Shown here: positions 2,991 to 19,489 of the stretch, piece by piece
How the letters are laid out: each line of letters opens with the position of its first letter
How positions within the stretch are numbered: position 1 is the stretch's first letter
Assembly (NCBI RefSeq): GCF_022846255.1
Contig: NZ_AP025682.1
Source of the DNA: Escherichia coli
Lineage (GTDB): Bacteria; Pseudomonadota; Gammaproteobacteria; Enterobacterales; Enterobacteriaceae
Direction: 5' to 3' (one strand)
Length of the DNA: 64,000 nucleotides
Notes under the pieces: generated by a model
The model's database searches: none
Told to the model about the DNA's origin: nothing
The model's input: only the letters and a program-made list of their open reading frames with translations
Translations under genes and position numbers: made by a program

Positions 2991-3031
2991 TTGTTTTACC
3001 GCCTGATGGGCGAAGAGAAAGAACGAGTAAA

Positions 3032-3102: not shown

Positions 3103-4152
3103 TTTGAAAACTGCCTGTACGGCAGTGAACAGCGCCCGCTTTTTTACCGCGTCAGCGCAGCGTTTCTAAGCTGCCTGTACGGCAGTGAACTCCCTGATTC
3201 AGTTGCGCTCCCCGACGAGCTGTTTCTAAGCTGCCTGTACGGCAGTGAACCGTTGGCGTTTCGCGGCAACAGGTTTTTCAATTTTCTAAGCTGCCTGTAC
3301 GGCAGTGAACGTAGTTTTGATTCCAGCGATAACTGCCTATTTATTTCTAAGCTGCCTGTACGGCAGTGAACGTAGTTTTGATTCCAGCGATAACTGCCTA
3401 TTTATTTCTAAGCTGCCTGTACGGCAGTGAACGATCAGGCCCGGCTTTCCCCACACGTTCGTATTTTCTAAGCTGCCTGTACGGCAGTGAACCGCCTGCC
3501 ATTCAACCTGCAAATAGTTTTCGATTTCTAAGCTGCCTGTACGGCAGTGAACGAACTGTGGCACGAGGTTGCAGGCGTAAGACTTTTCTAAGCTGCCTGT
3601 ACGGCAGTGAACGCCATCTTTGAATATAACGCCCCGATTGTGATTTTCTAAGCTGCCTGTACGGCAGTGAACCCCTACCGTTTTAATAAATGGGATTTGC
3701 ATTATTTCTAAGCTGCCTGTACGGCAGTGAACGCTGAGGTGTTTACAATGCGTGCCGTGCTGGTTTTCTAAGCTGCCTGTACGGCAGTGAACTCTGTTTT
3801 TCGTCAGCAGGATTAAACCAGGCATTTCTAAGCTGCCTGTACGGCAGTGAACTCTCATCAATTACGGGTTCGTTGGCTGGATCTTTTCTAAGCTGCCTGT
3901 ATGGCAGTGAACGTCTTCTGCGCATCCGTACCACTCACCAATGATTTCTAAGCTGCCTGTATGGCAGTGAACTTAATCGGTAACGTTGCTCTAATTCCCC
4001 CTCTTTTCTAAGCTGCCTGTATGGCAGTGAACCCAGCGAGAATTGAGGCTGTTTGCCGTGTGCTTTTCTAAGCTGCCTGTATGGCAGTGAACATAAACGC
4101 GCGCAGGTTGTTGAGGTGCTCGAGTTTCTAAGCTGCCTGTATGGCAGTGAAC
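3103..4152 (-). CRISPR. CRISPR array 1, type I-F repeat; 18 repeats / 17 spacers
   Basis: 28-bp unit TTTCTAAGCTGCCTGTACGGCAGTGAAC on the + strand (reverse complement of the I-F consensus GTTCACTGCCGTACAGGCAGCTTAGAAA) at 60-bp period; repeat starts 3103, 3163, 3223, 3283, 3344, 3405, 3465 ... 4125; spacers 32 bp except a duplicated 33-bp spacer; degenerate terminal repeat at 3103-3130 marks the leader-distal end. Confidence 0.97.
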
Positions 4153-4400
4153 TGGAATAATAGCAGACTATCCGATTGATTTACTGTTAAAACTTACAAA
4201 ATCGCAGATTCAAACCCTTTTTCCAGACTTCAAAACAGAAATAAACAAAATCAATGAGTTACATTTCGCCCTAAAAAAAGGGTCGATTTGGTATTTCTTC
4301 AATCTCATATTTTCTGCATAGCTTTTGATAAACAATTGACCAGAACACATACGGTCATAATCTCCGTCCCGCGAACAGCGTGTTCATTGCGTAACCAAAC
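4153..4400 (-). promoter_or_regulatory. putative CRISPR array 1 leader (AT-rich)
   Basis: AT-rich sequence abutting the conserved end of the array; the degenerate repeat is at the opposite end; promoter not mapped. Confidence 0.45.
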
Positions 4401-4423
4401 AAATCAATCTATATAAATTCTTC

Positions 4424-4452
4424 TTGACCGTTTCACTCCAACTCCCTATAGT
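4424..4452 (+). promoter_or_regulatory. candidate sigma70 promoter of tRNA-Ser (TTGACC -35, 17-bp spacer, TATAGT -10, GC-rich discriminator)
   Basis: motifs read directly, about 45 bp upstream of the tRNA 5' end. Confidence 0.5.
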
Positions 4453-4495
4453 AGCGCCCCGTTGCCACCTATGAGGTCTGGCAGCAAAACAATTT

Positions 4496-4583
4496 GGTGA
4501 GGTGTCCGAGTGGCTGAAGGAGCACGCCTGGAAAGTGTGTATACGGCAACGTATCCGGGGTTCGAATCCCCGCCTCACCGCCA
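4496..4583 (+). tRNA. serW: tRNA-Ser (anticodon GGA)
   Basis: 88-nt sequence GGTGAGGTGTCCGAGTGGCTGAAGGAGCACGCCTGGAAAGTGTGTATACGGCAACGTATCCGGGGTTCGAATCCCCGCCTCACCGCCA; long variable arm, CUGGAAA anticodon loop, encoded CCA. Confidence 0.93.
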
Positions 4584-4596
4584 TCTTTAAAGAAGA

Positions 4597-4624
4597 GCTC
4601 GTACGAAAGTACGGGCTTTTTTTT
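4597..4624 (+). terminator. rho-independent terminator downstream of tRNA-Ser
   Basis: hairpin GCTCGTAC-GAAA-GTACGGGC followed by a T8 tract. Confidence 0.55.
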
Positions 4625-4642
4625 CGCATTGATGCACCTTAA

Positions 4643-4677
4643 ATAAAAAACACGTACTTCCTCTTCGAAAGTACGTG
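4643..4677 (-). terminator. terminator candidate for the fimbrial operon (minus strand)
   Basis: perfect 8-bp inverted repeat CACGTACT/AGTACGTG; on the minus strand it is followed by TTTTTTTATTT. Confidence 0.45.
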
Positions 4678-4704
4678 AAAATCAGTGGCTGATTACCATA
4701 CCCA

Positions 4705-5718
4705 CTAGTCGTAGGATACGGCAAATATGGCTTTGCTTTGGACTTCTCCAGGCTGTAGTGCTTCCTCCTTCACGCGGACATATTTCGCGGTAATCGGGAA
4801 GGTGTACTGATTCTCAATGGCCGCCATTTTAGTTAGTTTGTTCATCAGAGTATCACCCAGCTTTAACGGTGTTGTTGCGTTACCATTATAAATCTGGAAC
4901 CCAACCCCCTTAGCACCATTAAGCGATGTGTTTTTCAGAATGGTTCCACTATCATCCCATTCACCGCGCGCAACTTTAAAAGTCACTGGATTAGTCGTGA
5001 CGTTATAAACACTGTCACAATTTAAAACCAGATCTATAGAACCTGATTTCGTGTTATTGGCAGATTGCATCTCACTTACCGTTGTTTCTGGCATTCTTAT
5101 TTCGTAAATCGGTTGCGAAAAACTACAGGTTGTGGGTTTGTGTTTGATGCTAAATTCTATATTCTGAGTGTAAGAAACATCACTATTTAGTCGCCCAGTA
5201 ACCCAACATAAAAGCCATGATATGATATTATTATTGCAAGAGTTATCTGTTAGTATGCTAATAGCGGGGCGCGGGATGGTTATCTTGTCGATATTGGTGG
5301 TTATAGTATGGTCTACTTTACTCGTTGGCCCAACATATTCTGCCTTAAGAGTGAACGGTTTGGTATTTATCACATCCTGAGTGTTATATTCTTTTGGAGA
5401 AGCACCCAAGGAGTCAGTTCCAGTAGAAACAGGAAAACTACTACTCTCAAGGTTAAATTTCATAAAAATTGATTTCCCCGAATCCGACTCTCTAAGTTCA
5501 ACGATATAATCTTTTAACGGTGTTGCATAATACATTTTATCGCTTGCTGCATTACATGTGAACGTATCGACTAAGTTTGTATGAATTACAGCCGTTACCG
5601 TATCTTGTGCCATATCCAGTTCTATCGTTTGGCTTGCTGTTGTATTAGGCCCCAAGGTACATTTAGCCTGCCCCAAAAAAGGCAAAGCCAGTAAAAACAA
5701 AAACCAATATTTCTTCAT
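4705..5718 (-). CDS. fimbrial tip adhesin-like protein (two-domain, FimH-like organisation)
   Basis: ORF 4705..5739; start trimmed to the ATG at 5718 preceded by AAAGGA; signal peptide MKKYWFLFLLALPFLGQA; C-terminal pilin-like end AIFAVSYD; last gene of a chaperone-usher operon. Confidence 0.7.
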   Translation of the reverse strand: MKKYWFLFLLALPFLGQAKCTLGPNTTASQTIELDMAQDTVTAVIHTNLVDTFTCNAASDKMYYATPLKDYIVELRESDSGKSIFMKFNLESSSFPVSTGTDSLGASPKEYNTQDVINTKPFTLKAEYVGPTSKVDHTITTNIDKITIPRPAISILTDNSCNNNIISWLLCWVTGRLNSDVSYTQNIEFSIKHKPTTCSFSQPIYEIRMPETTVSEMQSANNTKSGSIDLVLNCDSVYNVTTNPVTFKVARGEWDDSGTILKNTSLNGAKGVGFQIYNGNATTPLKLGDTLMNKLTKMAAIENQYTFPITAKYVRVKEEALQPGEVQSKAIFAVSYD

Positions 5719-5729
5719 AAACAAATCCT

Positions 5730-8222
5730 TTAACGACAAATATAAACTTTATTCTCATCAATAACGTTATCAAAGGTAATAGTGCAGAATTGTTCCTGCT
5801 GTTTATTAACCGAGACGCGAATCGACGCGGGAACATCATTGGTGCGAATAAATATCCGACTTCCCTGTCCTACTAAGCCCACATTATTGCCACTTTCATC
5901 TTCAACCTCATAACCAAACGGCAACGGAGAGCCATCAGGTCGTTGGGAGATGAAATACCAGGGCTTGCGTTTATCAGTCTCAAACTGCGTCATCACTACC
6001 GCACCACGATAAGGAACGGTGTTTTTACGGTTACCCAGTAGCGCCACATCGCTTTTACTGTCGGCAATATCCAACATCAACGTATTTTCACGATACGGCG
6101 TCAGGTTGTCATAAATAGCGTAGCCTCTGCTATCCGTGGTCAAGTAACGATATCCCTGCACCGCAGCCCCCTCCAGCCCAGGTGCTTTGACAATGGCAAA
6201 CGTATCGGAAAGTCTGGGAGCCAGTGCCACCCCGTCCGACCACGCGACGAAACCGCCTTGAATATTACCGCTAACCTGTTGATATCTTTTCGACTGGCTA
6301 TAGCTGCCACCAATAGTCGCCAATGGCGCACGCCAGGTCAGGTTTCCACCTGCTGTTGTTTCGCTGCCCTGGTGTTGATGGCTCAAGTTTGCCCCGTAGC
6401 TGAACTGATCGCGGCTCCCCGCTACACCGCTGAGGCTGGTATTATTCGACCGATAGCCGTCTTTATCAAAAGTGGTCGAGTTAGAAACAAATAAATCTCG
6501 TCGTTTTTCAGTGATTCCATCGCCCCACGAGAAGGGAATTGAGAAATATAAGTTAATGCGTCTATCTTCGCGGTTATCTTCGTCGTAGGTCTGGCTAACA
6601 GACAAGGTATAACTAAGGCGTTCCCAGGAGTTCGAATAGCTGAGTTGATAATCTTTCCCTGTCCCGCTGCGTTCCCAATAATCCCGCCATTGACCGCTGA
6701 CCGACAGATATCCCCAATTTTCCGGTAATGACTGGTTTATATTTACAGAAAAGCTGTTCTTACGACCAAAATCGTACTGATAATAGTCGGCGATATCATA
6801 AACTGAGTCATCTTCTCGATTATAACTTTTCCTGTTATTTGCCCTCACGTGATCGTTAAAAGTACGATAATCTCGAGAAGAATAACGCCAGGCCGCCAGC
6901 GAAAATTGCGTTCCACTTTGAGAGAGATATTTGTTCCACGCAATCTGATAACTTTGACCATTAAACACATCACCGTTATCTTGTTCACTGTGGGAATGGG
7001 TAAAATCAACAGATACCGCACCAATCGGTGTATTCCATCCCGTGCCGAGAACAAACGATGAGTAATTATCAGACAACTGCGTGCCAGCATAGAGAGTCAG
7101 CAAATTATTAAGGCCATACTGATAGCTTCCCTGAATAAAATCTGACTGATCGCTGGCTCCCTCAATACGGCTACGTCCGACAGCAAATTCATATTTCGAA
7201 ACGCCCGGTTGCAACATATTTGGTACCGATGAATAAGGTACACGATAACGCGACACCGAACCGTCAGCTTCTTTAACGGTAACTTCCAGATCGGCACCAC
7301 CACCTGCAAGTTGCAAATCATCAATGGCGAATGGACCTGGCGGAACTTCTTTCTGGTAAACCACAAAGCCATTTTGTTCGATAGTGACAAGTGCGTTACT
7401 TTGGGCAACACCACGCACCACAGGCGTAAAATTCTGTTTAGAGTTCGGCAACATCTGCATATCGCGCCAAAGGCGTACACCGCGAAAACGCACGGAGTCA
7501 AAAACATCAGAACCGGTATACATTTCACCAGCACGCAATGTGCCAAGAATATGTGGAATTCCGCGCTCCAGATATAACGTGTTACTCTTCCATTTACCGC
7601 TGTTATCGTCACTTTTCGTATAATTGGCATTTGAATGCAACTGCCAGCCCAGCAGATTCAAACCACTATTCAGATTTAAATAGCTACTTTTATTATCTCC
7701 TCCGTGCTTATAATTACTGTAATACTGACTGGCATAATAAGAAGTATATAATGCGTTAATCCCACGATCCCATGCCTCAGGTGGAACATATCCGCGTTCA
7801 TACTCAACAACATAGGCCTGGGGTACACTCAACTTCAGGTTAAAATGCCCAATATCATAGTCAACGCTACCTCCCTGTACTGCATCCCGAAGAGGTACGC
7901 ATTCTACGCCTTTATCAATATTAATTCCTTCAGTGAGGATACCTATTTGCTTTAACTGCTCCCAAGATAAACATGTCGCATCCGGATCATCTTTAATGTC
8001 GACATTATAGTGTCCGCGCCACTGATTATTCAGGTAAACATCCATATCATAGATACCTGGCATCGGCTTATCACTATCAATATGATAGTCAGAAATTTTT
8101 TCCCCATTTAATCCGCCAATCATAAAATGGGTGTCAAATGTTTCATCTTCCGCCCATGCAAGCGACGTTGCCAACACCGACAGGATAGCCAGCGTAATAG
8201 AATTAAGTTTAGACATAATCAA
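5730..8222 (-). CDS. fimbrial outer-membrane usher protein
   Basis: 830-aa ORF with signal peptide; size and position after the chaperone are typical of PapC/FimD-family ushers. Confidence 0.9.
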   Translation of the reverse strand: MIMSKLNSITLAILSVLATSLAWAEDETFDTHFMIGGLNGEKISDYHIDSDKPMPGIYDMDVYLNNQWRGHYNVDIKDDPDATCLSWEQLKQIGILTEGINIDKGVECVPLRDAVQGGSVDYDIGHFNLKLSVPQAYVVEYERGYVPPEAWDRGINALYTSYYASQYYSNYKHGGDNKSSYLNLNSGLNLLGWQLHSNANYTKSDDNSGKWKSNTLYLERGIPHILGTLRAGEMYTGSDVFDSVRFRGVRLWRDMQMLPNSKQNFTPVVRGVAQSNALVTIEQNGFVVYQKEVPPGPFAIDDLQLAGGGADLEVTVKEADGSVSRYRVPYSSVPNMLQPGVSKYEFAVGRSRIEGASDQSDFIQGSYQYGLNNLLTLYAGTQLSDNYSSFVLGTGWNTPIGAVSVDFTHSHSEQDNGDVFNGQSYQIAWNKYLSQSGTQFSLAAWRYSSRDYRTFNDHVRANNRKSYNREDDSVYDIADYYQYDFGRKNSFSVNINQSLPENWGYLSVSGQWRDYWERSGTGKDYQLSYSNSWERLSYTLSVSQTYDEDNREDRRINLYFSIPFSWGDGITEKRRDLFVSNSTTFDKDGYRSNNTSLSGVAGSRDQFSYGANLSHQHQGSETTAGGNLTWRAPLATIGGSYSQSKRYQQVSGNIQGGFVAWSDGVALAPRLSDTFAIVKAPGLEGAAVQGYRYLTTDSRGYAIYDNLTPYRENTLMLDIADSKSDVALLGNRKNTVPYRGAVVMTQFETDKRKPWYFISQRPDGSPLPFGYEVEDESGNNVGLVGQGSRIFIRTNDVPASIRVSVNKQQEQFCTITFDNVIDENKVYICR

Positions 8223-8230
8223 TCCCTGAT

Positions 8231-8911
8231 CTATTTGACGGTTTTTACTTTTTCACTCAAATAGTTCCCATGGTCATCAATCAGCGTAATTGTATATTGA
8301 TTGATGGCTAAGGCTGTGGTGATAGTCTTATCTGACCAGGGGGCTAATAACAACGTTTCGTGATTTATTTTTCCACTTCCCATCAACTCAGGAATAGTTA
8401 TCCAGTTTGCGGAGTTGTTTTTGATATTAATACCACCATTGGCATGCTTAATGCTCAGACGACGAAAACTTTCTTTATCTACGCCAGTAAGTCCCTCTGG
8501 GCGGTAGATAAATTTAATACGATTCTGCATGGCGAATTTTATGCCATTCTTATCTTCTAATTCGGGGCAATTAGGTGGGATGTCTAGCACATTAAGGAAG
8601 AATAGGCTTTCGCGATCTTTTGGTAGTGTATTCGCCAATTTTTTGATTTTGAGTTGTTGCCCTTCCCCCCCTTTTACGTGAGCGACCGGTGGCGTCAACA
8701 CAAACGGAACATGAATTTTTTCTGGGGGTAGACTGGTATCGCCATCATCAATCCATGACTGAACCAGGGCGCTACGATTACCTTCATTCATTAACTGAAC
8801 GGTAATCTCTTTTTTCTTTTCTGGATAAATAACACGAGTGCCGTAGATATAGACACCACTCCACGCAGGCGTGACTATGCCGGCCAGCAAGAAGGCTATT
8901 AATTTTTTCAT
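8231..8911 (-). CDS. fimbrial periplasmic chaperone (PapD/FimC family)
   Basis: 226-aa ORF with signal peptide MKKLIAFLLAGIVTPAWS; size and operon position. Confidence 0.88.
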   Translation of the reverse strand: MKKLIAFLLAGIVTPAWSGVYIYGTRVIYPEKKKEITVQLMNEGNRSALVQSWIDDGDTSLPPEKIHVPFVLTPPVAHVKGGEGQQLKIKKLANTLPKDRESLFFLNVLDIPPNCPELEDKNGIKFAMQNRIKFIYRPEGLTGVDKESFRRLSIKHANGGINIKNNSANWITIPELMGSGKINHETLLLAPWSDKTITTALAINQYTITLIDDHGNYLSEKVKTVK

Positions 8912-8964
8912 TAAACAATCCTTGTTTGAGAAATCGGCGACCGAAGCCGCCGATAAACACGATA

Positions 8965-9513
8965 TTAATCTGTCACGACAGTCATTGTCAGAGCAGAGTT
9001 AACCGGGCCAGCAGTCACCGCATCACCTGATTGCGCGTATTTCGCACTGAAATTTAGTGTATATTCATTAGAGCTGTTTTTTTCTAACTCAATACTTTTA
9101 TCACCGTCAATCTGTTGAGATTGCCCATCTGCACTCTCATAGTAGACAGCAAAACCAGCACCATTTGGGTTTGCCACAGTATTAATGGTGATATCGCTAC
9201 GATTTGCATCAAACTGACTTCTGGAAAACGTAATTCTGGGAGTCTCATCTCCTGTACATTTGACCGTCAGCGGTACAGTTGTTTTATTTGAATAACCATC
9301 ATAAATATAACCAGCGCTCTTACCATCAAATTGATCAGCACCAATATCGTTCATAGCAATAGTAGCCTGGCTATTTCCGATAAATTGACAAGTAGTTCCA
9401 ACCACATTACCGGTAATAACTAACTCACCCTGTTCACTCCCCTCCTCTGCAAAAGCCCCTGCACTCATAAAAAGAGAAGATAATACTGCAACTGCAATAA
9501 TTGAACGTTTCAT
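8965..9513 (-). CDS. fimbrial major subunit (type 1 pilin-like)
   Basis: 182-aa ORF with signal peptide ending AFA, paired Cys residues, first gene of the operon. Confidence 0.85.
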   Translation of the reverse strand: MKRSIIAVAVLSSLFMSAGAFAEEGSEQGELVITGNVVGTTCQFIGNSQATIAMNDIGADQFDGKSAGYIYDGYSNKTTVPLTVKCTGDETPRITFSRSQFDANRSDITINTVANPNGAGFAVYYESADGQSQQIDGDKSIELEKNSSNEYTLNFSAKYAQSGDAVTAGPVNSALTMTVVTD

Positions 9514-9840
9514 AGTCTATTCCTTAACTAATTTATTCCAGGTGATCAAGAGTCTTTTTCCTCTCGGAAATGAATTTCGCAAATTACATTTTCTATCGCA
9601 ATGTAAACAATTTGTTTTTGTGATTTAAATCAAATTATCAAAAGCATATAACAAACAAAAACATCTACAAAAAATATTTTCCTTGTTTACTATTCGGCAT
9701 TATTTGATGTCTTTGCAAGGTAAATTAATACGTATAATTAATTGTGGTTTTTTATTTTAAATAAACATCCGCATACTGATAAAAGTGTAGGGCATTGAAT
9801 TATTTATTCTATTTCCAGCCAGAAATAGGCTTTTCAATAG

Positions 9841-9870
9841 ACAAAAAGACCTGACAGCAAGGCCAGGTCT
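9841..9870 (-). terminator. terminator candidate downstream of cas6f (end of the cas operon)
   Basis: 7-bp stem AGACCTG/CAGGTCT; on the minus strand it is followed by TTTTTGT. Confidence 0.45.
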
Positions 9871-9892
9871 TTTATACATTACAACTTACTAA

Positions 9893-10447
9893 TCAAAACC
9901 AGGGAATAGTGGCGGTTGCGCTTAATCCGTAACTACTAAATTCCCCTTTAACCGGTTCAGTAAGCAAATCACCATGACGGATAAACAGCTTGAACTGCTG
10001 CTGACTCGACAAACTATTCATATTAAGAAAGGGTAAATCGGTCCGCTGTTCAGCCTGCGTCGCCAGTCGCTCAATCGCCTGTTCTTCAGTTAGCCAGCCT
10101 TTTTTCACTGAACGCCTTAACAGACGCTGAGGGTTACTTTTTACCTGTACACGACTTACGACTCGCCAGCCTTTAATTTCAGGTACTAGCGTGACAGGCG
10201 AACATTGGCAGTAATCAGTAAGCCCTTTACGCCACGTAGAGGCTTCAAGTTCTTGCAATGCGGGGGCACTGCCGTGCAAGCGTAAACGCGCTCCCGGCGT
10301 AACATTCACGTCCGGGAAACTCACGCCGATATCACCTTGCCCTCTTGCACCTAATGCCCGATGCAATTTGGCAAATAACGCCGCCATCAACATTTCGCTC
10401 GAAAATTCAGGATCTGGCAGAACGCGGATCTCAAGGTAGTGATCCAT
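9893..10447 (-). CDS. cas6f: Cas6f / Csy4 crRNA endoribonuclease
   Basis: ORF 9893..10489 trimmed to MDHYLEIRVLPDPEF..., the recalled Csy4 N-terminus; AGGAG RBS 7 nt upstream of the ATG at 10447. Confidence 0.92.
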   Translation of the reverse strand: MDHYLEIRVLPDPEFSSEMLMAALFAKLHRALGARGQGDIGVSFPDVNVTPGARLRLHGSAPALQELEASTWRKGLTDYCQCSPVTLVPEIKGWRVVSRVQVKSNPQRLLRRSVKKGWLTEEQAIERLATQAEQRTDLPFLNMNSLSSQQQFKLFIRHGDLLTEPVKGEFSSYGLSATATIPWF

Positions 10448-10457
10448 TGGCAGCTCC

Positions 10458-11459
10458 TTATTCCGATTTCTCACCAAAGACACCGCCACGGATCAGCACA
10501 GCCATCACGTAGCGCTGCTGATCAACGTCTGGTTTCATCCCTTTAGTCACCCAATTGTCCAGTAAGGTATAAAAGTCGAGTTTTTCTTTCGGTTGACGGC
10601 AGGCCACACCGCGACTGGTTACAGAACCGTAAGGTTCCACGGCTATAGCCCCCAATTCATCAACCTTTGGATGCCAGGTATCAATGGTACGTAAAGCATT
10701 GCCAATCTTCTGAGAGTGAATACCGGCAATGCCAGCCACCTGGTATAACACGCGACTTTTACTACTGTTGCTGTCGAGTACCAGCTCCTGCGACGGAAAA
10801 ACTTCTTGCCCGGCACCAAGACGAACCTGCGCTTCAACGGTAAGCATCACCCACTCTTTTGCGCTTAATCCTTGCTCTATAATGGCCGCCAGCTGCGTGA
10901 CCGCTGCCTGTCCCTGGTCAAATTGACGTAAAGAGAAGTCATGGCTGTTAAAAGTCCAGGAAGTGTCGTTAGCAGTAACTTTCACCTGGATCTGCTCAGC
11001 ACCAATGCGGTTGCGCCACAGAAAACGACCATTTGCCAGATTCAGCGCATAGCGAAGCGCCAGCTCTTTAAAGCCATGTTCGCTGATGTAACCTTCAATG
11101 ACCCCGGAAAGCGCCTCCTGGTAAGCCATATCATTACATACTGACGGTGTGGATAAATTACCCAGCACACGCAGCGTAAACACCACCTTTAACGTATCCG
11201 CATCTACCGGAAGCGAAGCCACATCCACCCGTTGCAGGTTAGCTTTTTGGATTTCAGCATCCAGTTTTGTGGAGTCACTGGTAATCGTATTTTTCAAGCG
11301 ATTAGAGATAGTTCCGCGAACCGCTTTCTCCTGAATCTCAATGGGTTGCCATACATTTCCTTGCCAGTTACCTGCGTACATTACCGCGTCAGATGTTGCC
11401 AGTTTGCGCTCAAATGCCAGTACCGATGCCGTTTTTATTACTACAGGAGCCTTTGCCAT
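10458..11459 (-). CDS. cas7f: Cas7f / Csy3 (Csy complex backbone)
   Basis: 333-aa ORF; size and operon position between csy2 and csy4. Confidence 0.9.
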
Positions 11460-11469
11460 AATTATGTCC

Positions 11470-12393
11470 TTATTCTAAATCGTCATATTCATTAAAAGTA
11501 AAATCATCACCAGCTGGCATTGCCGAGCAATAGTAGCCAGTGTCCGTTGTGCGGTAACGCCACATCAGCGGTTGCAAGTCAGTTATGCGATGTAATCCGC
11601 GCCATTCGCCGATGCCATATACCGCTTCGGCAAAAGCAAATGGCGTCACGGTGTCGCGCGCATTTTCAACTTCACCGGGTGCGTAAACAGGAGAAATGCG
11701 TTGGTAGCCACACATTAACGGTACCAGGAAACCAGGCATTGGCTTCGGCTGATATGTCCATTTTGCGCTGTTGTCTTCTGCCGGAGATTCGGCCTGATAT
11801 TTAACGGCAGCAAAATCAAGCCAGGCATCCAGCAATGAGATGTCGGGATGTTGTTGGTGATGTTCAGCCAGCCATTCACTGCGATCGTAAAGCGCATAGC
11901 CAGGCATTAAACGCCAGATGATTTTACGCAGTTGCTTTTCATCTTCAGGCGCATGAAAAAGCTGTGGTTCGCGCATGTCAACAATGCTGCCGCCCGCCAG
12001 TTTGTGGCTCTGGCAGAGCATTTTCAGATGGTCACACAGAGCTTTTCTGCCATATTCACCATTGGTGATTTCCCCTTCACATTCAATGAGCAAAGATACC
12101 GTCAGATGCATACGGCCCTCTTCATTGAACGAAGCGGTTTTACCTTCTCTGGTTAGTGGGTTACGGGTGAGAGCAAACTGAAAATACCGCCCAGAGCTAT
12201 ATGCCTGAATATGTTGTTCATGGCTAACTACCGCGCAACCGTCAAAACTTACGCCAAAATCATCCGCCACTTTGCGAGAAAGCGCATGAACATAGCCGAG
12301 AAAATGGGTCATCGCCGGGAATCCCCAGGTCAACCCGGAGACGGCGTTAGCGTTTTCGATACGTATATGGGGTAACAAGAGCAGATAACTCAT
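11470..12393 (-). CDS. cas5f: Cas5f / Csy2
   Basis: 307-aa ORF; 4-bp overlap with csy1; operon position. Confidence 0.88.
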
Positions 12394-13697
12394 TTCAGCG
12401 CCTCCTGCAAAACAGCTTCCATTTCACGCATCCGTTGAGCGAACAGAGACTGGCTGCGCCATTCTCTTTGCTCGACAGCGCCCACGTCGAAACTGGATTT
12501 TTTCAGGCGATAGTTGAGCCAGCGCGCAAAATCATCGGCCACCGCCCCCTGCCAGTCGTTTTTCTCCCGCTCCAGTTTGAAAACCTCATCGGACAGGCTT
12601 CGCCACGGATCCAGCCAAAGCTGCTGATGGCGAGGTAAATCTTGCGATTGCGCTGACCATCCCTGCCATTTTTCTTGCTGAAAAGCGGATGCCTGCATGA
12701 ACAGCAGATCGATCAACTCATCAATATATTTCGCCCGCGCAGTTCGGATATGAACATTATTTATGTCAACCTTCAACAGGTAAGTCATCCGGGCGATAAT
12801 GCCCGAAGCCGCCCTATTGAAATCGCCGCGTAAGGCAAAAATACTGAGCATGTTTTGTGGTGCGCGATCCAGCGTCGCCCAGGTAGGCGGCATTGACGGC
12901 AACAGCCAGACGCGCCCCCCACGCACACTATTGAGCAATGAAATATTTTGCGGTTTTGTGCCTCCGAAATGCATTTCAGCAAGATTCGGGAAACGAATAT
13001 CTGGCTGTGAGTGCCATTTACCTGCTTTGTGCGCTTCGCGAATGGCTTTCGATTCCTCACTAAAGCGCACGGCGGTTAGCTTTTCATACATCGCCTGCGC
13101 CAGTGAACTGGAAAACAGTGGGCATAAGAGGTGATAACCATCCGCAACAGGGAAATAGATTTGTTTTGCCAGTTTATGGCTGGCAGGCCGTCCAGTTGTC
13201 CATGCCTGGCTAAACCCAGCTACCCACTGCTCCAGTTGCGCTTTATCCTCTGCAAACGTACTTAATGCCTGATAATCACCACGCTTCAGGCTGGCAAGCA
13301 GTGAATCTCCGTTCACATCAGTTTGTAGCAACTTTGCGACGTCAAGTGCAGCGGCGTTACCAATCGCGTCAGTAGCGACATTCGCCAACGATGCCGTGTT
13401 TAAATAGCTTTCGTTAGCGGAGGTTTCCAGATAAAAGCTACTGGCTTTAGAATCACCATGACTGAATTTAGCGCCATGAGTGACTAATTTGATTTGCCCG
13501 GCACGCTTTGCCGCATCCGTTAACCAGTGACGAGGCAGGTAGCGTGCCTCGAGTTCCTGCCGCTCCTGAGCGATGACGCTGGCATCCTCGCCCTGTTCCA
13601 GTCGCTTTGTTGCTTCTTTTTCAAAGGCCTCGACTTTGGGTTGCCTTCGCGAAGCGATATAGTCAGTGATAAATTGTATTAGCGCCGTTTTTTCCAT
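12390..13697 (-). CDS. cas8f: Cas8f / Csy1 (large subunit)
   Basis: 435-aa ORF; AGGAG RBS upstream; operon position. Confidence 0.9.
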   Translation of the reverse strand: MEKTALIQFITDYIASRRQPKVEAFEKEATKRLEQGEDASVIAQERQELEARYLPRHWLTDAAKRAGQIKLVTHGAKFSHGDSKASSFYLETSANESYLNTASLANVATDAIGNAAALDVAKLLQTDVNGDSLLASLKRGDYQALSTFAEDKAQLEQWVAGFSQAWTTGRPASHKLAKQIYFPVADGYHLLCPLFSSSLAQAMYEKLTAVRFSEESKAIREAHKAGKWHSQPDIRFPNLAEMHFGGTKPQNISLLNSVRGGRVWLLPSMPPTWATLDRAPQNMLSIFALRGDFNRAASGIIARMTYLLKVDINNVHIRTARAKYIDELIDLLFMQASAFQQEKWQGWSAQSQDLPRHQQLWLDPWRSLSDEVFKLEREKNDWQGAVADDFARWLNYRLKKSSFDVGAVEQREWRSQSLFAQRMREMEAVLQEALK

Positions 13698-13940
13698 CTC
13701 GGCTCCTTTCGTTAATCCATCAAATTGAAGTTGCTCCCTGACTTCACTGAAAAATCTCCGTAGCCCAACCAGGCTTCAGTACAACGACGCATACAGCAAA
13801 AGGGACAACACCCGTGGTGATAATCATGGATAGCTCACCTAGAGGTATCTACGTTTTAATCTAGTAAAATCCATGCAATAACCAATAGTGATATTACCAT
13901 GCATGAAATATTTGCCACACAATGATTTAAAAACTAACAT

Positions 13941-14016
13941 TCACGCACTGCCGTTGGCAGCTTAGAAATAGAGGTATCTCCGGATACGGACTTGTAAACT
14001 GCCGTACAGGCAGCCC
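13941..14016 (+). repeat. two degenerate CRISPR repeat-like sequences in the cas3-csy1 intergenic gap, inverted relative to both arrays
   Basis: 13946-13968 CACTGCCGT-T-GGCAGCTTAGAAA (loop shortened from 5 to 3 nt); 13998-14014 ACTGCCGTACAGGCAGC (17-nt exact repeat core); consensus orientation is on the + strand, opposite to the arrays. Confidence 0.6.
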
Positions 14017-14024
14017 GCGCCCCT

Positions 14025-17000
14025 TCACGGGGCGCGGTACACACCTAACCAGGGGTGATAACGCCAGTCATCGACCACATCTTCTTCACTGACGGGTACT
14101 CTCACCTCAGCAAACTTTTCCCCAACGCTTGCTATCTCACAACCTTGCTTATCAGCTAAATTCAACAAAACGTGTTGGTAATCCATCACGCCCCAGCAAG
14201 CGACACCGCTGGCGCATCTCACCTCTTCTCGCCTGAAATTCCCTTGCGCTTTACGCTCGTTGTCGCCCGTACGGGAATAGAAACGCGCTTCGCTTTCTTC
14301 ATCATCCATATGCAGAAAAAATACCGCCTCCGGCAAAGGGGAATAACGAAATGGCGTCTGGCGCTGTATCCAGCCGTTCCAGCTTAGCGGTGCACGCCAC
14401 CATTGCGCCGCCACCACATGTTTGCTTTTACTGCTCATCAATTCGGCGGATAAACGACTATGTTCTAGCTCCGCCAGTTTGTTGGCATTATTGGCAGACA
14501 GGATCCGCGGCAAGGCGTTAATCGTCCGGTAGTCCGCGATCGGAATCAGTTCGCAAATATCGTGGCTATTCAGCAAGTGTTCTTTTGTTTCGAAACCAGG
14601 CTTACAAAATGCGGGGGCTTTTTTCTGCAATGATTTGATATTGCTACGCAAAATAACCAGATTCTCACTGGTCGGCACATTTCTACGGTGGCGCTGAATA
14701 CGTCCGGCAAATTGAATTATCGAACGCATGGAGCTTGGTTCGATAATTCCCCAATCCGCATCCCAGTCACGCCCCACTTCTATAACCGATGTCCCCAACA
14801 CCACAAACAGATGGTGCGATTCCGGACGGTTATGTAAGGCATCTGCGATATCTTCGTTGTTCCAGAAATCGAGTTCGTTATGACGGGTAAAAGCGCGGTC
14901 CAGTCGCTTCTCAATATCTGAACGCACCGCCAGCGGGTGTCGGGAGTGGTAAACACAATAATGAATACAAACATTTTCTGGTGAAGGAATGGCAATCAGG
15001 GCTTTGGTCACTGCAACCAGTGGATTGATATTCGCGAAGCGCACCAGGCCCAGCGAAACGGTTTTACCGCTTTCGTGTAGCTGGCGATGCGCCTGATGCA
15101 ACTTCAGCATTTGCGTATGCACCGTCTGGGCCACACTTTCGGTAACATCCTGGATTGCAACTGATGCAGATGAAATCGAAGCAACACGCCCGAAATGCAG
15201 CCGCTCTTTTTCAGCCAGCATTACCGCCCGCCTGGCAACAAATTTTGTATGCGCATCGCGAAAGGCCGCTCCATCGCTAATTTGCGTGGCATCAGCATCG
15301 TTTTCGTCAAACCAGGCACAGCAAATATTGACGGGCCTGCCGTTGGTACCACAAGACGCCTGCCACATTTTACGCCCGGCAAGATAAGCCGCGAACAGCG
15401 CCTGAATCAGGCCTGGCGGAAGCGTCGCCGAAGAGAGTAACACCCGCGTTCCCAGCATCCCGGCCCAGTTCATCAAACGACATACCGCATGAAGATCAGC
15501 AATATCAAAGTCGTCGGGTTCGTCGAGCACTAAATCGCTGGTTAACAGACGCAACATCGCCGGAAGCTGTTTCCCGCCACGCACACCCTCGGTCGCGGAA
15601 ATAAGATGATCAATTGTCGCGACCAGAATCGGCGCGCTCACTAACGCCTTAAGTTTGCTGTCATCCTTCAACCATTTTTCCAGCGCCCCGGTATGCAGGC
15701 TGCCTTCGTACTTAACGAACTGTTGCTCCTCTGCCGGCGACTCTTGCGAGGCACTTCCACAATCATTGTCTATTTTTTCCTGCTGCCAGAGCTGTTTAAC
15801 TGCCGCCGAACCAATTAATACCGCCAGCTCATCCTCACCGAGTCCAAGTCGACTACGCAGAGCATCGCCGGTTTGCAAAGTCAGCGTACGCAATCCCAGC
15901 GCGACGGTAAAACGGCACCCTTCCCGCTCATCGGCAAGCGCATACATAATGCGGGCGTTCGCAAAGGTTTTACCGCACCCCGTCGAGGCCATATTAACGC
16001 CGAAAAATCCCTCCTCCCGGCTTCGTTCACGTAACGCTCGCGCCACATCCGAGGCTTTATCCTGCCAGCGATATTTCGCATCTGTAGCTCGCTGGCTAAA
16101 ACCTTTATGTCGGGCAATTGCCGGAAGAGAAGCCCGTGTGCGCATCAGCTGCCGCCCAAGCAAAAACGCATGATGTGCGACGCCGACCAGGTGCTCGTCC
16201 ACCCGTTGTTTGAGTGCGCCACTTTGCCTATCGCTATTTGCCCAGACGATATAATCCGGCTCCTGCCATTTTTGCTGCGCATCGCTTGAGGAATAGTAAT
16301 GATCGGCAAGCATCAGGCAAAAACGCGCCATATGTGAGGGGAACAACTGTTCCATCAGCCCGTATGTCTTTAAACCGAGCGCGTTACTTGCCCGGCGGGA
16401 AATCTGATGTGCTTTTTCTCGCCAGCTAGCACTCTGAAGCGGTGTTCCAGCCGGAAATTGCCAGACGTGCGCAAAATCCTGTTGTAACCAGTCATCTCTG
16501 CGGTGGTTAACGGCATTCCAGTCAGCATTAAGTTGCCTTTCCAGCCAACTTTCACACCCTTTGCAAGATTGTTCCGGTTGTGGCGAAAGATTCTCCGGAA
16601 TTCGATGATGGGAAAGGATCAGCCAACCTACCGTTTTGGCTAGCGGTTGCAGCGAAGTAAATGGGCTATCTGAAAATTGAGGCGTGTCTTTTAGCAGGCG
16701 TTCCAGAATCGCAGATTCATCATCTGCCGTAAGTTCGCCAAGCTTCGCCAGCCACACATCGTCGGGCCGATCACCGACAAACGCCTGAAAGAGCCGCAGT
16801 GAGATCCATTCATGTCGGTATGGTTGATAACTGCGGGCATTCTTTTGGGTCAGGCTTTGCTGAAAGCTGCGTCCGGATTTTCCAAAATCATGAAATAACC
16901 CGGCGATGGCTGCCAGCAGCGCAATGCTTTCCGCACATTGCCAGCGGTTTTCTTCCTTGTTCACCAGGCTGGTTTGCGTTGTGCGATTTGTGGGAACGCG

Positions 17001-17258
17001 CCCCTGAGCATTAAAACGACGAATATTACCCACAATCCACATCAACTCAATTTGTCCATTCTTCTTTAGCCAGTGACATGCCACTGCGGTATTTCGCCTG
17101 GCAGTTTTGCGCAGTAAACGGCGGAGTGTATTAACGCCTTCCAGAGTAATCACTGTTTGCCATGCGGCATCACCTGTACGTTCAGCAAACTGATCAATAA
17201 TACGGCAGCTTTCCACGCGGGCGTTTTTTGTACAGCGCGAGATAATCAGAACATTCAT
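14025..17258 (-). CDS. cas3: Cas2-Cas3 fusion (Cas3f: N-terminal Cas2, HD nuclease, helicase)
   Basis: 1077-aa ORF; N-terminus MNVLIISRC...FAERTGDAAWQT resembles recalled I-F Cas2/3; HD motif LFHDFGK; 4-bp overlap with cas1. Confidence 0.95.
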   Translation of the reverse strand: MNVLIISRCTKNARVESCRIIDQFAERTGDAAWQTVITLEGVNTLRRLLRKTARRNTAVACHWLKKNGQIELMWIVGNIRRFNAQGRVPTNRTTQTSLVNKEENRWQCAESIALLAAIAGLFHDFGKSGRSFQQSLTQKNARSYQPYRHEWISLRLFQAFVGDRPDDVWLAKLGELTADDESAILERLLKDTPQFSDSPFTSLQPLAKTVGWLILSHHRIPENLSPQPEQSCKGCESWLERQLNADWNAVNHRRDDWLQQDFAHVWQFPAGTPLQSASWREKAHQISRRASNALGLKTYGLMEQLFPSHMARFCLMLADHYYSSSDAQQKWQEPDYIVWANSDRQSGALKQRVDEHLVGVAHHAFLLGRQLMRTRASLPAIARHKGFSQRATDAKYRWQDKASDVARALRERSREEGFFGVNMASTGCGKTFANARIMYALADEREGCRFTVALGLRTLTLQTGDALRSRLGLGEDELAVLIGSAAVKQLWQQEKIDNDCGSASQESPAEEQQFVKYEGSLHTGALEKWLKDDSKLKALVSAPILVATIDHLISATEGVRGGKQLPAMLRLLTSDLVLDEPDDFDIADLHAVCRLMNWAGMLGTRVLLSSATLPPGLIQALFAAYLAGRKMWQASCGTNGRPVNICCAWFDENDADATQISDGAAFRDAHTKFVARRAVMLAEKERLHFGRVASISSASVAIQDVTESVAQTVHTQMLKLHQAHRQLHESGKTVSLGLVRFANINPLVAVTKALIAIPSPENVCIHYCVYHSRHPLAVRSDIEKRLDRAFTRHNELDFWNNEDIADALHNRPESHHLFVVLGTSVIEVGRDWDADWGIIEPSSMRSIIQFAGRIQRHRRNVPTSENLVILRSNIKSLQKKAPAFCKPGFETKEHLLNSHDICELIPIADYRTINALPRILSANNANKLAELEHSRLSAELMSSKSKHVVAAQWWRAPLSWNGWIQRQTPFRYSPLPEAVFFLHMDDEESEARFYSRTGDNERKAQGNFRREEVRCASGVACWGVMDYQHVLLNLADKQGCEIASVGEKFAEVRVPVSEEDVVDDWRYHPWLGVYRAP

Positions 17259-18244
17259 TGATCAGCCTTAGCCAGTGCCTGGGCAGTTTCCTGCAAAGAG
17301 GTGATCATGACATCCAGCGCATCCGTTTGTTGAAAGATATTGATGCAGCGTAGACGAAACTCCTGGGCATCTTCACCTGCCATCGCGGCGATAAATGCTT
17401 GCGGCATCACAAGGGCATCTTTAATCAGATCGGCAAGGTCAAAAACCAGCCCGCCGCGACGTGTTTTACCGTGCATTACTGCTAAACCGTGCGGGATCCC
17501 GGTTACCCACGCCGCCACTGCTGCCAGTCCATAAGCCAGATAATTCCCTTGATCGAGGAAGCGGTTGGCCATATCAATACCACCGCCCCGTTTTGCGCGA
17601 GTGAAATCGCCATACCCCACTGTTTGACTGACCATTTTGTATAACGCTTTAGTCAATTTGGCCTCTACGAGCATAAGCTGCGTATGGTTTTCTGCCGCGT
17701 CTATTTCTTCACGAGTACGATTCAGGAGGGTATGCAGCGCATTAACATCAGGTTGAAATGCGTGTTCACGCTGCATTTTCGAGCTGGACCAGTGCTTATC
17801 GATATGTGTCAGGCGGATTAACTGAAAACGTTTCGCGGCGGCAAGTCGTTTATCTTCAGCAAACCAAAAAGAAACCCACTGCTGGAGATACTCTGTAGGG
17901 CGATATTCACTTTGTGGGCTGAGCCAGGAGACATCAACATCCACTTCATTTGCCGAATACAGCGGCGTGCCATCCGTACCACAAAAGCCCACCATCACCC
18001 CGGCATGAGCAAATTCACGCATCGCCGCCTGAGTAACGGAAGTTCCCATTCCCAACATCAATGCCGTGGTATTCGCAATGGGGATATTCCAGTAGTACGA
18101 CTCTTTACCTTCGCTGGTGACATACTCCACCCGCCCACCATTCACCTGTACCCGGCATTTTTCCAGATAATAAATATTGGCGCGTTTGGAGTGGAGAATG
18201 GTTTTGAGATCGGAAGGCGTGAGGTAATTCGAAGACATAAACAC
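17255..18244 (-). CDS. cas1: Cas1 integrase (type I-F)
   Basis: 329-aa ORF; SDLKTILHSKRANIYYLEKCRVQVNGGRVEYV resembles recalled I-F Cas1. Confidence 0.95.
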   Translation of the reverse strand: MFMSSNYLTPSDLKTILHSKRANIYYLEKCRVQVNGGRVEYVTSEGKESYYWNIPIANTTALMLGMGTSVTQAAMREFAHAGVMVGFCGTDGTPLYSANEVDVDVSWLSPQSEYRPTEYLQQWVSFWFAEDKRLAAAKRFQLIRLTHIDKHWSSSKMQREHAFQPDVNALHTLLNRTREEIDAAENHTQLMLVEAKLTKALYKMVSQTVGYGDFTRAKRGGGIDMANRFLDQGNYLAYGLAAVAAWVTGIPHGLAVMHGKTRRGGLVFDLADLIKDALVMPQAFIAAMAGEDAQEFRLRCINIFQQTDALDVMITSLQETAQALAKADQ

Positions 18245-18409
18245 ATCCTGTGATTATTTTATATTTGAAGGTATTGGGCTTAGTACAGCATTGATTTATG
18301 TGCTGAAAATTGATTTCTGTCGCAATTATTACGATTGTTATTGTATGCTGAAGCTAATGGTTTGAAGTTGAGAGCGTCATGATATGACCAAACGTCTACC
18401 ATTATCGTA

Positions 18410-19277
18410 TTGTGAAACTACCTGTACGGCAGTGAACCGCGTAGAGCTGCTGCGCAAACTCGACACTCATTTCTAAGCTGCCTGTACGGCAGTGAACCCT
18501 CGTTCATCAAGGTGCTCAAAGCTTGACATTTTCTAAGCTGCCTGTACGGCAGTGAACGCCAAGAACGCTGTTACCGCTTCCCTGTGCGCTTTCTAAGCTG
18601 TCTGTACGGCAGTGAACCCAGATTGCCGAAAACATCGCCTTTGATGAACTTTCTAAGCTGCCTGTACGGCAGTGAACGGGCGCGGTGTCGTCCAGGATTT
18701 GGAGGCAACTTTCTAAGCTGCCTGTACGGCAGTGAACAACAGGTCGTCCAGCGCATCCCACGGATCCGGTTTCTAAGCTGCCTGTACGGCAGTGAACATC
18801 GCGCACACGCAGTCTTACATTTGCCACCATTTCTAAGCTGCCTGTACGGCAGTGAACGAGTGATTATTATGGCCCAATCGGACGATGACTTTCTAAGCTG
18901 CCTGTACGGCAGTGAACCTCCACCCGTGGTAAGCAGAAAGGGCCGTAACTTTCTAAGCTGCCTGTACGGCAGTGAACTGATCTGTTGCGATACTGACAGT
19001 ATCGTTAGCTTTCTAAGCTGCCTGTACGGCAGTGAACTGTTTTTTTGACGTGTAAACCGGGCGGTTTTTTTTCTAAGCTGCCTGTACGGCAGTGAACATC
19101 TCCGTATTTACTGTCCTCCCTGCTATCCATTTCTAAGCTGCCTGTACGGCAGTGAACTGCCAGTTTCGAAAACGTGCAGCAAATGCAGTTTTCTAAGCTG
19201 CCTGTACGGCAGTGAACTACCTTAATTTGAAATGAACCTTTGCCGCATATTTCTAAGCTGCCTGTACGGCAGTGAAC
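18410..19277 (-). CRISPR. CRISPR array 2, type I-F repeat; 15 repeats / 14 spacers
   Basis: same 28-bp repeat at a strict 60-bp period (starts 18410, 18470 ... 19250); all spacers 32 bp; degenerate terminal repeat at 18410-18437 (cas1-proximal); one variant repeat at 18590-18617. Confidence 0.97.
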
Positions 19278-19425
19278 TCAAATACTACACGTTTAGCTCG
19301 TTGTTGATAAAGAAAAATCATCTCATTTTCCTGCTGCCACCCTTTTTTATTCTTACCTTCCAGCACCATTAATTATCAACAACTTACCTTCACCTCCAAA
19401 AATAGGGTTTTCACCGTTCCCCCCT
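19278..19425 (-). promoter_or_regulatory. putative CRISPR array 2 leader
   Basis: AT-rich sequence next to the conserved end of the array, between the array and the clpA terminator; promoter not mapped. Confidence 0.4.
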
Positions 19426-19464
19426 ACAAACAAAAAGTCCGTAACCTCTTTCGAGATTACGGAC
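19426..19464 (-). terminator. rho-independent terminator of clpA
   Basis: 8-bp stem GTCCGTAA/TTACGGAC; on the minus strand it is followed by a T-rich tract. Confidence 0.6.
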
Positions 19465-19489
19465 TTCACCAACCTACCTAACAATTAGA

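Follow-up and report, generated by a model that had tools for sequence, protein, structure and literature searches.

Spacers of a chromosomal type I-F1 CRISPR-Cas system of Escherichia coli match temperate phages, prophages and plasmids

Introduction

Pectobacterium atrosepticum and Pseudomonas aeruginosa provide the models for priming and interference by type I-F CRISPR-Cas systems, and their systems share the cas gene set, the repeat family and the CC PAM with the locus described here. Among E. coli systems, type I-F has been reported as constitutively active in strain LF82 (PMC3506596), and type I-E is reported to be silenced by H-NS, with I-F again described as constitutive (PMC8148099). 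High turnover has been reported for the I-F arrays of this species (PMC8148099). The spacers of E. coli mostly target prophages, and those of type I-F also target conserved plasmid regions (PMC10910852; PMC8148099).

Here, we analysed the two CRISPR arrays in a 64-kb stretch of E. coli DNA (64,000 nucleotides; 'the window' in short) and searched their spacers against phages, plasmids (PLSDB), 5,426 complete E. coli genomes, IMG/VR and other collections. The arrays very likely serve an intact type I-F1 system of the E. coli chromosome (CRISPR3/CRISPR4) as its immune memory.

Results and discussion

Anatomy of the arrays and the cas operon

Approximate matching of the 28-nt repeat delimited the two arrays and reproduced the spacer counts (17 and 14) and outer coordinates proposed in an initial annotation of this DNA. 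Spacers are numbered from the leader (A1_s01 onwards in array 1, A2_s01 onwards in array 2).

3103..4152, minus strand: CRISPR array 1, 18 repeats and 17 spacers (16 unique)
3103-3130: degenerate terminal repeat of array 1
3311..3404, minus strand: duplicated unit of a 33-nt spacer plus repeat (A1_s13 = A1_s14), tandem copies at 3311-3343 and 3372-3404
3885-4152: loop variant (G to A) in the five leader-proximal repeats of array 1
4153..4495, minus strand: predicted AT-rich leader of array 1, from the first repeat to serW
4496-4583, plus strand: serW, tRNA-Ser
18410..19277, minus strand: CRISPR array 2, 15 repeats and 14 spacers
18410-18437: degenerate terminal repeat of array 2
18590-18617: repeat of array 2 with a stem mismatch
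19278..19489, minus strand: predicted leader of array 2, from the first repeat to the clpA stop codon

The repeats are almost invariant across both arrays, and 24 of the 33 are identical to the minus-strand consensus GTTCACTGCCGTACAGGCAGCTTAGAAA (28 nt, with an internal 5-bp stem). Such a series of 33 near-identical 28-mers at 60-nt spacing far exceeds chance. All spacers are 32 nt long except the two 33-nt copies of the duplicated spacer, and because this spacer occurs twice, the 31 spacers amount to 30 unique sequences. No target of the duplicated spacer was found in the databases searched, including the IMG/VR pattern scan. The four spacers that had been quoted as examples (A1_s10, A1_s07, A2_s09 and A2_s07) are present as written; the quoted letters are those of the plus strand and must be reverse-complemented to read as crRNA. 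The degenerate terminal repeats and the orientation of the PAM (see below) establish the minus-strand polarity of both arrays.

An intact cas operon lies between the arrays, and each of its genes corresponds to an NCBIfam I-F equivalog:

9893..18244, minus strand: type I-F cas operon, intact
17255-18244, minus strand: cas1f
14025-17258, minus strand: cas2/3f (fused)
12390-13697, minus strand: csy1 (cas8f)
11470-12393, minus strand: csy2 (cas5f)
10458-11459, minus strand: csy3 (cas7f)
9893-10450, minus strand: cas6f

All six genes scored far above the curated NCBIfam cut-offs with full-length alignments, which makes up the type I-F1 gene set. Pfam domains, taken from contigs encoding an identical Csy1, agree with this assignment, and the exact Csy1 sequence carries the annotation E. 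coli Csy1. Comparison of flanking genes places the locus on the chromosome between infA-serW and clpA, the position of E. coli CRISPR3/CRISPR4. The genes cydC, aat, clpA and clpS share 97.6-99% identity with their E. coli counterparts and are collinear with those of strain 2014C-3097; overall identity of the region is ~93% because csy1 and the cas region are divergent. On the strength of these housekeeping genes and of the Csy1 annotation, E. albertii and a cryptic Escherichia clade were rejected as the host. A fimbrial insertion of 5.3 kb separates cas6f from array 1.

We propose that transcription of both arrays starts in the leaders at their high-coordinate ends and follows the minus strand. 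Judging from the protein families, Cas6f would cleave the repeat hairpins and free the crRNAs, the Csy1-4 complex would locate DNA that pairs with a spacer and adjoins a CC PAM, and Cas2/3 would degrade the DNA so found.

Spacer matches in mobile elements

Ten of the 30 unique spacers matched mobile elements (prophages, phages and mostly conjugative plasmids), two further spacers (A1_s10 and A2_s12) matched other CRISPR arrays only, and 18 had no match anywhere. The initial annotation had listed all targets as unknown, which no longer holds for the ten. Its expectation that a search would reveal the mobile elements met by this lineage was borne out, these being prophages, phages and mostly conjugative plasmids. 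Eight of the ten matches were as follows:

3433..3464, minus strand: A1_s12, 32/32, GCC flank; SprT-like gene downstream of stbC in ~91 PLSDB plasmids
3853..3884, minus strand: A1_s05, 32/32, ACC flank; lambdoid prophage at ttcA in E. coli STEC379 and STEC384
3973..4004, minus strand: A1_s03, 28/32, GCC flank; tail-tip J-like gene of the JNE151685 prophage
4033..4064, minus strand: A1_s02, 30/32, ACC flank; tail module of a prophage in E. coli JNE151685
18438..18469, minus strand: A2_s14 (oldest of array 2), 31/32 with the mismatch at position 24, GCC flank; STEC379 lambdoid prophage
18618..18649, minus strand: A2_s11, 32/32, ACC flank; DUF3164 gene of a Mu-like transposable prophage
18738..18769, minus strand: A2_s09, 28/32, CG flank; large-terminase gene of phage vB_EcoM-ep3, BLAST E about 2
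19218..19249, minus strand: A2_s01 (newest of array 2), 30/32, TCC flank; phage CharmingMan and prophages of E. coli B27 and others

Among the records matching A1_s12, 89 of 93 were typed as conjugative, and the single plasmid inspected, from E. albertii, was IncN, MOBF and MPF_T. An IncN-typed plasmid is thus added to the plasmid families targeted by E. coli I-F spacers. Beyond A1_s12, the plasmid search returned a single 23-mer in a Mycolicibacterium plasmid, which was dismissed as chance. The gene targeted by A1_s05 adjoins the repressor and is annotated as 'type I restriction endonuclease', and in E. coli A35 and OkiPb01694 the Mu-like prophage matched by A2_s11 lies beside ybjC. The repeat that gives the A2_s11 crRNA its 3' hairpin is the one with the stem mismatch. 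Partial perfect matches of A2_s01 (23-25 nt) were seen in HK544, Emek, ev099, Ss-VASD and many E. coli prophages. Of the four mismatches of A2_s09, those at positions 3, 21 and 24 fall on every-third positions, as does the non-C flank base, which points to vB_EcoM-ep3 being a relative of the true target.

The identifiable targets are all enterobacterial mobile elements, namely lambdoid, Mu-like and P2-tailed myovirus temperate phages or prophages and a plasmid backbone gene. For this lineage, they amount to a record of encounters with temperate phages of the lambdoid, Mu-like and P2-tailed kinds and with a group of mostly conjugative plasmids, one of them typed as IncN.

Several elements were matched more than once. 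The protospacers of A1_s05 and A2_s14 lie 6.7 kb apart on the same strand of the STEC379 prophage, those of A1_s02 and A1_s03 lie 2.55 kb apart on the same strand of the JNE151685 prophage, and a third pair, described below, lies 0.42 kb apart on opposite strands; three pairs are too few for statistics. Two or three elements are thus hit by two spacers each, in two cases by one spacer per array, so both arrays drew on the same elements and the same adaptation machinery fed both. The match of the adjacent spacers A1_s02 and A1_s03 to one prophage is consistent with primed adaptation. No further spacer matched, at up to 10 mismatches, in the STEC379, JNE151685, OkiPb01694 or B27 prophages, CharmingMan or the IncN plasmid.

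The dinucleotide CC was found immediately 5' of the protospacer (crRNA-sense strand; protospacer-GG in target-strand notation) in seven of the ten cases, against a background of 0.059 (P = 2-4e-7); the remaining three carry GT (A1_s08), CT (A2_s07) and CG (A2_s09). None of the seven CC-flanked protospacers has C at -3, and the published E. coli I-F PAM logo likewise lacks it (PMC3506596). These statistics independently confirm the orientation of the arrays and their I-F identity. Together with the cas genes, they agree with the earlier designation of the arrays as type I-F with a CC PAM 5' of the protospacer.

Two spacers resembled spacers of other arrays:

3553..3584, minus strand: A1_s10, matches type I-E spacers only, 29-nt overlap offset by 2 nt, same strand
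18558..18589, minus strand: A2_s12, 1-nt-offset overlap with an I-F array spacer of Escherichia sp. E1V33

The I-E spacers resembling A1_s10 come from two E. coli strains, WL297 and 2013C-4282, where they sit in CRISPR2, and from one metagenome contig. The A1_s10 target itself was not found, and a metagenome scan with its core returned another I-E array; nor was the target of A2_s12 found in the databases searched. In IMG/VR, scans for A1_s01, the A1_s10 core, A1_s13, A2_s02, A2_s09 and the A2_s12 core (exact patterns or N at every sixth base) gave no match, and negatives from exact-pattern scans of these six spacers are weak. A scan of genome contigs for A2_s14 also gave none.

These two array-only spacers, and the individually weak match of A2_s09 (28/32, BLAST E about 2), would suit the view that the matches reflect chance similarity or other CRISPR arrays instead of true protospacers. 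We consider this extremely improbable. Random expectation per database is <1e-7 for 32/32 hits and <5e-4 (at most 4e-4) for hits with <=2 mismatches, all the other hits lie within annotated phage or plasmid genes and not in repeats, and the PAM enrichment has a P of about 4e-7. Control DNA gave no hits either: 630 kb of unrelated chromosomal loci yielded nothing at <=7 mismatches except a spacer in another CRISPR array. For nine of the ten matched spacers, the chance reading is effectively refuted.

A myovirus prophage matched from both arrays

The initial annotation had raised a match to the adjacent fimbrial block or other chromosomal DNA as a possible sign of self-targeting. No such match was found in the fimbrial block, the cas genes, the 64-kb window or the conserved E. 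coli chromosome. Within the window, in line with the annotators' inspection by eye, blastn-short (word size 7) returned only the duplicated spacer and 14-15-nt hits with one mismatch (E 0.3-1.1). Hits in the 5,426 complete E. coli genomes were confined to prophages, plasmids and other CRISPR arrays, with none in the conserved chromosome.

The remaining two matches are perfect, lack the CC flank and converge on one prophage:

3673..3704, minus strand: A1_s08, 32/32, GT flank; same 182-aa gene as the A2_s07 site
18858..18889, minus strand: A2_s07, 32/32, CT flank; junction of the 182-aa gene and baseplate gene V

The two sites are 420 bp apart on opposite strands of an uncharacterised myovirus prophage with a P2-like tail, seen in IMGVR_UViG_2529293142_000021 as well as in 12 or more draft contigs of E. 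coli. A2_s07 also matches E24377A-type prophages at 28/32, and a 26/27 core of its site is present in ~430 complete E. coli genomes. The absence of CC from this pair is the sole mildly unusual point of the spacer set, which is otherwise ordinary for arrays of this kind.

The pair could mean that some spacers are self-targeting, with the myovirus prophage resident in the chromosome and tolerated through its non-CC flanks or through a repressed or inhibited system. In favour of this, both spacers match at 32/32 only 420 bp apart without CC, against CC in seven of the eight other protospacers, and no CC-bearing variant was found among the IMG/VR relatives of the prophage or in a second protein allele. 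Some self-targeting spacer has also been reported in ~10% of complete E. coli genomes (PMC10910852). However, the prophage is absent from the 64-kb window, and exact-protein look-ups gave no sample with both arrays and the prophage among the matches listed. No complete RefSeq E. coli genome (5,426) has either perfect protospacer, so the prophage variant is rare and chance co-residence unlikely. Written on the target strand, the flanks are AGC and ACG; E. coli LF82 showed interference with AGC equal to that with GGC, a G at position 3 being enough (PMC3506596), so the sites may be targetable and not tolerated. Imprecise acquisition from an infecting phage fits the data equally well. Self-targeting is improbable, and so is its specific form, a resident myovirus prophage targeted from both arrays and restrained by non-canonical flanks or an unrecognised prophage-borne inhibitor. 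The perfect non-CC pair on one prophage gene is nevertheless the only lead that deserves follow-up: should the prophage sit in the same genome, it would provide a natural system in which to study tolerated self-targeting or anti-CRISPR activity.

Immune memory or inert remnants

As argued for many E. coli CRISPR loci, the arrays might also be inert fossils of old encounters, with acquisition and interference lost. About 11 contigs from independent assemblies carry identical arrays, <=1 SNP apart, so the arrays are stable; several matches contain 2-4 mismatches, and the 5.3-kb fimbrial insertion parts cas6f from array 1. Yet every cas gene is full length, the repeats have hardly diverged, and five spacers match perfectly in circulating elements. 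None of the 5,426 complete E. coli genomes shares spacers with these arrays, which fits the reported turnover, and the constitutive activity reported for the LF82 I-F system also speaks against decay. We regard the fossil interpretation as unlikely and retain the reading of the arrays as memory of an intact system.

Comparison with known systems

With the I-F systems of P. atrosepticum and P. aeruginosa as reference, the several spacers per element and the 1-nt-offset spacer seen here would fit primed adaptation and 'slipped' acquisition, the paired hits being only suggestive. The I-F1 system known from E. coli (CRISPR3/CRISPR4 arrays between infA and clpA), which has been studied in strain LF82, has in common with the present locus the order array, serW, cas6f-csy3-csy2-csy1-cas2/3-cas1, array, clpA, the 28-nt repeat and 32-nt spacers, a leader-proximal GG/CC PAM that excludes C at -3, and phages and conserved plasmid regions as targets. 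The present locus differs in the Yeh/Stc-type fimbrial operon inserted between serW and cas6f, in a csy1 that is only 83% identical (nucleotide) to that of E. coli 2014C-3097, and in a spacer set found in 0 of 5,426 complete genomes. Its targets include an IncN-typed plasmid, whereas earlier reports named IncI1, IncFII and IncFIB backbones (PMC8148099). The type I-E system of E. coli (CRISPR1/2) differs in repeat, PAM (AAG-type) and cas genes, but its target spectrum is likewise dominated by temperate phages, including the E24377A-type prophage family, and an I-E spacer of other strains shares a 29-nt overlap with A1_s10.

CRISPR arrays and their orientation

The two arrays with 31 spacers observed in the initial annotation were confirmed by repeat search and spacer extraction. 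Searching with the 28-nt repeat (GTTCACTGCCGTACAGGCAGCTTAGAAA in minus-strand reading) returned the same numbers, 17 and 14, and the four spacers cited as examples were all found as written, on the plus strand. The repeat spacing is 60 nt in both arrays. The features are:

3103-4152, minus strand: array 1, 18 repeat copies and 17 spacers
4153-4495, minus strand: leader of array 1, placed by repeat polarity
18410-19277, minus strand: array 2, 15 repeat copies and 14 spacers
19278-19489, minus strand: leader of array 2, placed by repeat polarity

Each array is terminated at its low-coordinate end (3103; 18410) by a degenerate repeat, and in array 1 the five repeats closest to the opposite end (3885-4152) have a derived G-to-A loop variant in common. 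This polarity places the leaders at the high-coordinate ends, and both arrays are accordingly predicted to be transcribed on the minus strand. The loop variant in the five leader-proximal repeats fits a process in which each new acquisition copies the first repeat. Spacers were named by array (A1, A2) and numbered from the leader. The number of unique spacers is 30, as a single 33-nt spacer is present twice in tandem (3311-3343 and 3372-3404). This duplication of a spacer together with its repeat (A1_s13 = A1_s14, 3311-3404) more likely arose by slippage or recombination than by two independent acquisitions. In array 2, the repeat at 18590-18617, which would form the 3' hairpin of the A2_s11 crRNA, carries a stem mismatch (GGCAG to GACAG).

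Cas genes and genomic setting

Between the arrays lie cas1f, cas2/3f, csy1, csy2, csy3 and cas6f, all of full length and scoring far over the cut-off against the respective NCBIfam type I-F equivalogs. The flanks of the locus, cydC-aat-infA and clpA-clpS, share 97.6-99% identity with E. coli, and E. coli 2014C-3097 has an annotated I-F locus with which they are collinear. The remainder of the window follows the E. coli gene order up to ybjC at 98% identity, and the identical Csy1 protein has an E. coli record (WP_137501653.1 / BDH34086.1). At the nucleotide level csy1 (cas8f, 12390-13697) is only 83% identical to that of 2014C-3097, compared with 95-98% for the other five cas genes; the window seems to carry a locally divergent allele for this PAM-reading subunit.

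The cas operon is parted from the array-1 leader by a chaperone-usher fimbrial operon of the Yeh/Stc type (4584-9892), whose four genes lie on the minus strand (ORFs 4705-9513). It forms a 5.3-kb insertion between the tRNA-Ser gene serW and cas6f, where 2014C-3097 has ~110 bp. In 35 complete E. coli genomes a ~94% identical block is carried by plasmids of 99-121 kb or lies elsewhere in the chromosome. The block likewise adjoins I-F cas genes in Escherichia sp. E1V33 and in E. whittamii.

The same arrays were found in ~11 contigs from other assemblies among the matches listed. They are identical across assemblies except for an A-to-G change at position 7 of A1_s12 in a metagenome copy of array 1 (ENA ERZ929318 contig). 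No window spacer was common to any of 5,426 complete RefSeq E. coli genomes.

Mobile elements matched by the spacers

The spacers, oriented as in the crRNA and concatenated with N linkers, were searched against phage, plasmid and E. coli collections, and each match was realigned over its full length together with its flanks. This search, which had been proposed in the initial annotation, identified mobile elements met by the lineage. The targets had been described as unknown; this no longer applies to 10 of the 30 unique spacers, now matched to mobile elements. Eighteen gave no match in the collections searched.

Spacer matches to mobile elements (spacer; identity; bases directly 5' of the protospacer; target)
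A1_s02; 30/32; ACC; prophage tail module, E. coli JNE151685
A1_s03; 28/32; GCC; same JNE151685 prophage, 2.55 kb from the A1_s02 site, same strand
A1_s05; 32/32; ACC; lambdoid prophage at ttcA, STEC379 and STEC384
A1_s08; 32/32; GT; same 182-aa gene as A2_s07, 420 bp off, opposite strand
A1_s12; 32/32; GCC; SprT-like gene 3' of stbC, ~91 plasmids
A2_s01; 30/32; TCC; phage CharmingMan and prophages of E. coli B27 and others
A2_s07; 32/32; CT; 182-aa gene just 5' of baseplate V, uncharacterised myovirus prophage
A2_s09; 28/32; CG; large terminase, phage vB_EcoM-ep3
A2_s11; 32/32; ACC; DUF3164 gene, Mu-like prophage adjoining ybjC, E. coli A35 and OkiPb01694
A2_s14; 31/32; GCC; same STEC379 prophage as A1_s05, sites 6.7 kb apart, same strand

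The type I-F motif CC lies directly 5' on the crRNA-sense strand at 7/10 protospacers (background 0.059; P = 2-4e-7), and is still seen at these sites with the divergent csy1. None of these seven has C at -3, in keeping with the published finding that E. coli CRISPR4 PAMs exclude G at position 3 (PMC3506596). Fewer than 5e-4 random matches per database are expected at <=2 mismatches, and when 630 kb of unrelated chromosomal loci were scanned as a control, no match appeared at <=7 mismatches, the E1V33 array spacer excepted.

For A1_s12, 89 of the 93 matching plasmid records are typed conjugative, and the single plasmid inspected is IncN, MOBF and MPF_T. A1_s02 and A1_s03, which share a prophage, are neighbours in array 1. 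Partial perfect matches of 23-25 nt to A2_s01 occur in HK544, Emek, ev099, Ss-VASD and dozens of E. coli prophages. Because three of the four A2_s09 mismatches and the non-C flank base sit at every-third positions, its true target is probably a relative of ep3. The Mu-like prophage matched by A2_s11 is inserted at ybjC/grxA in A35 and OkiPb01694, ~35 kb from the CRISPR locus; its DNA is absent from the window, where homology to the A35 locus ends just past ybjC (53,854).

Two further spacers, A1_s10 and A2_s12, matched only other CRISPR arrays, with no target found in the collections searched. A1_s10 (3553-3584) overlaps a type I-E spacer by 29 nt on the same strand, with a 2-nt offset, in E. 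coli WL297 (CRISPR2; 2998-3029 of the retrieved locus), E. coli 2013C-4282 and one metagenome contig; two CRISPR types appear to have sampled one mobile-element site. A2_s12 (18558-18589) overlaps an I-F spacer of E1V33, which belongs to another Escherichia species (12371-12402 of the retrieved locus), with a 1-nt offset, so that at least one of the pair must carry a 'slipped', non-CC flank. By rough estimate, about one overlap with other arrays would be expected given the thousands of E. coli spacers and the limited prophage pool.

Perfect matches without a CC flank

The myovirus prophage matched by A1_s08 and A2_s07 combines a lambda-type terminase and portal with a P2-type tail. E. coli draft assemblies carry it, and IMG/VR lists it as IMGVR_UViG_2529293142_000021; the phage collection contained no close relative. 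A diverged A2_s07 site (28/32) is present in E24377A-type prophages, a family already reported as a frequent E. coli spacer target (PMC8148099), and its 26/27 core occurs in ~430 complete E. coli genomes.

CC was absent from both sites in every prophage copy sampled, among them a second protein allele and relatives at greater distance. Written for the target strand, the flanks read AGC and ACG. Both spacers may have been acquired imprecisely from an infecting phage. Such flanks could also result from PAM escape, but this is less parsimonious for A1_s08, where two changes are required. Alternatively, the prophage could be resident and the spacers tolerated as self-targeting. In E. coli LF82, however, Almendros et al. 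found interference with AGC equal to that with GGC, a G at position 3 being sufficient (PMC3506596). By analogy, both sites may be targetable despite their flanks, which weakens the explanation by tolerance, and among the samples listed none carried both arrays and this prophage.

Search for self-targets

Against the whole 64-kb window, including the fimbrial block and cas genes, the best non-self matches were 14-15 nt with one mismatch, which is chance level and agrees with the earlier impression that no spacer matched elsewhere in the window. As the host is E. coli, a spacer against the conserved chromosome would match thousands of the 5,426 complete genomes; zero such matches were found, and all matches in these genomes fall in a prophage, plasmid or other CRISPR array. 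Of the self-targets considered possible in the initial annotation, none is demonstrable in the window or the conserved E. coli chromosome.

Comparison with known systems

Constitutive expression and fast array turnover have been reported for the E. coli I-F systems at this locus, whose identifiable spacers match phages as well as conserved regions of plasmids (PMC3506596; PMC8148099). E. coli spacers overall target mainly prophages, and the reported share of spacers with a recovered target lies between a few percent and 60%, according to the databases used (PMC10910852). The 10/30 spacers matched here, all to mobile elements, fit this picture, and the IncN-typed plasmid adds modestly to the plasmid families for which I-F targeting has been reported. 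The arrays represent a well-known system in its ordinary form, and targets are now known for one third of the spacers.
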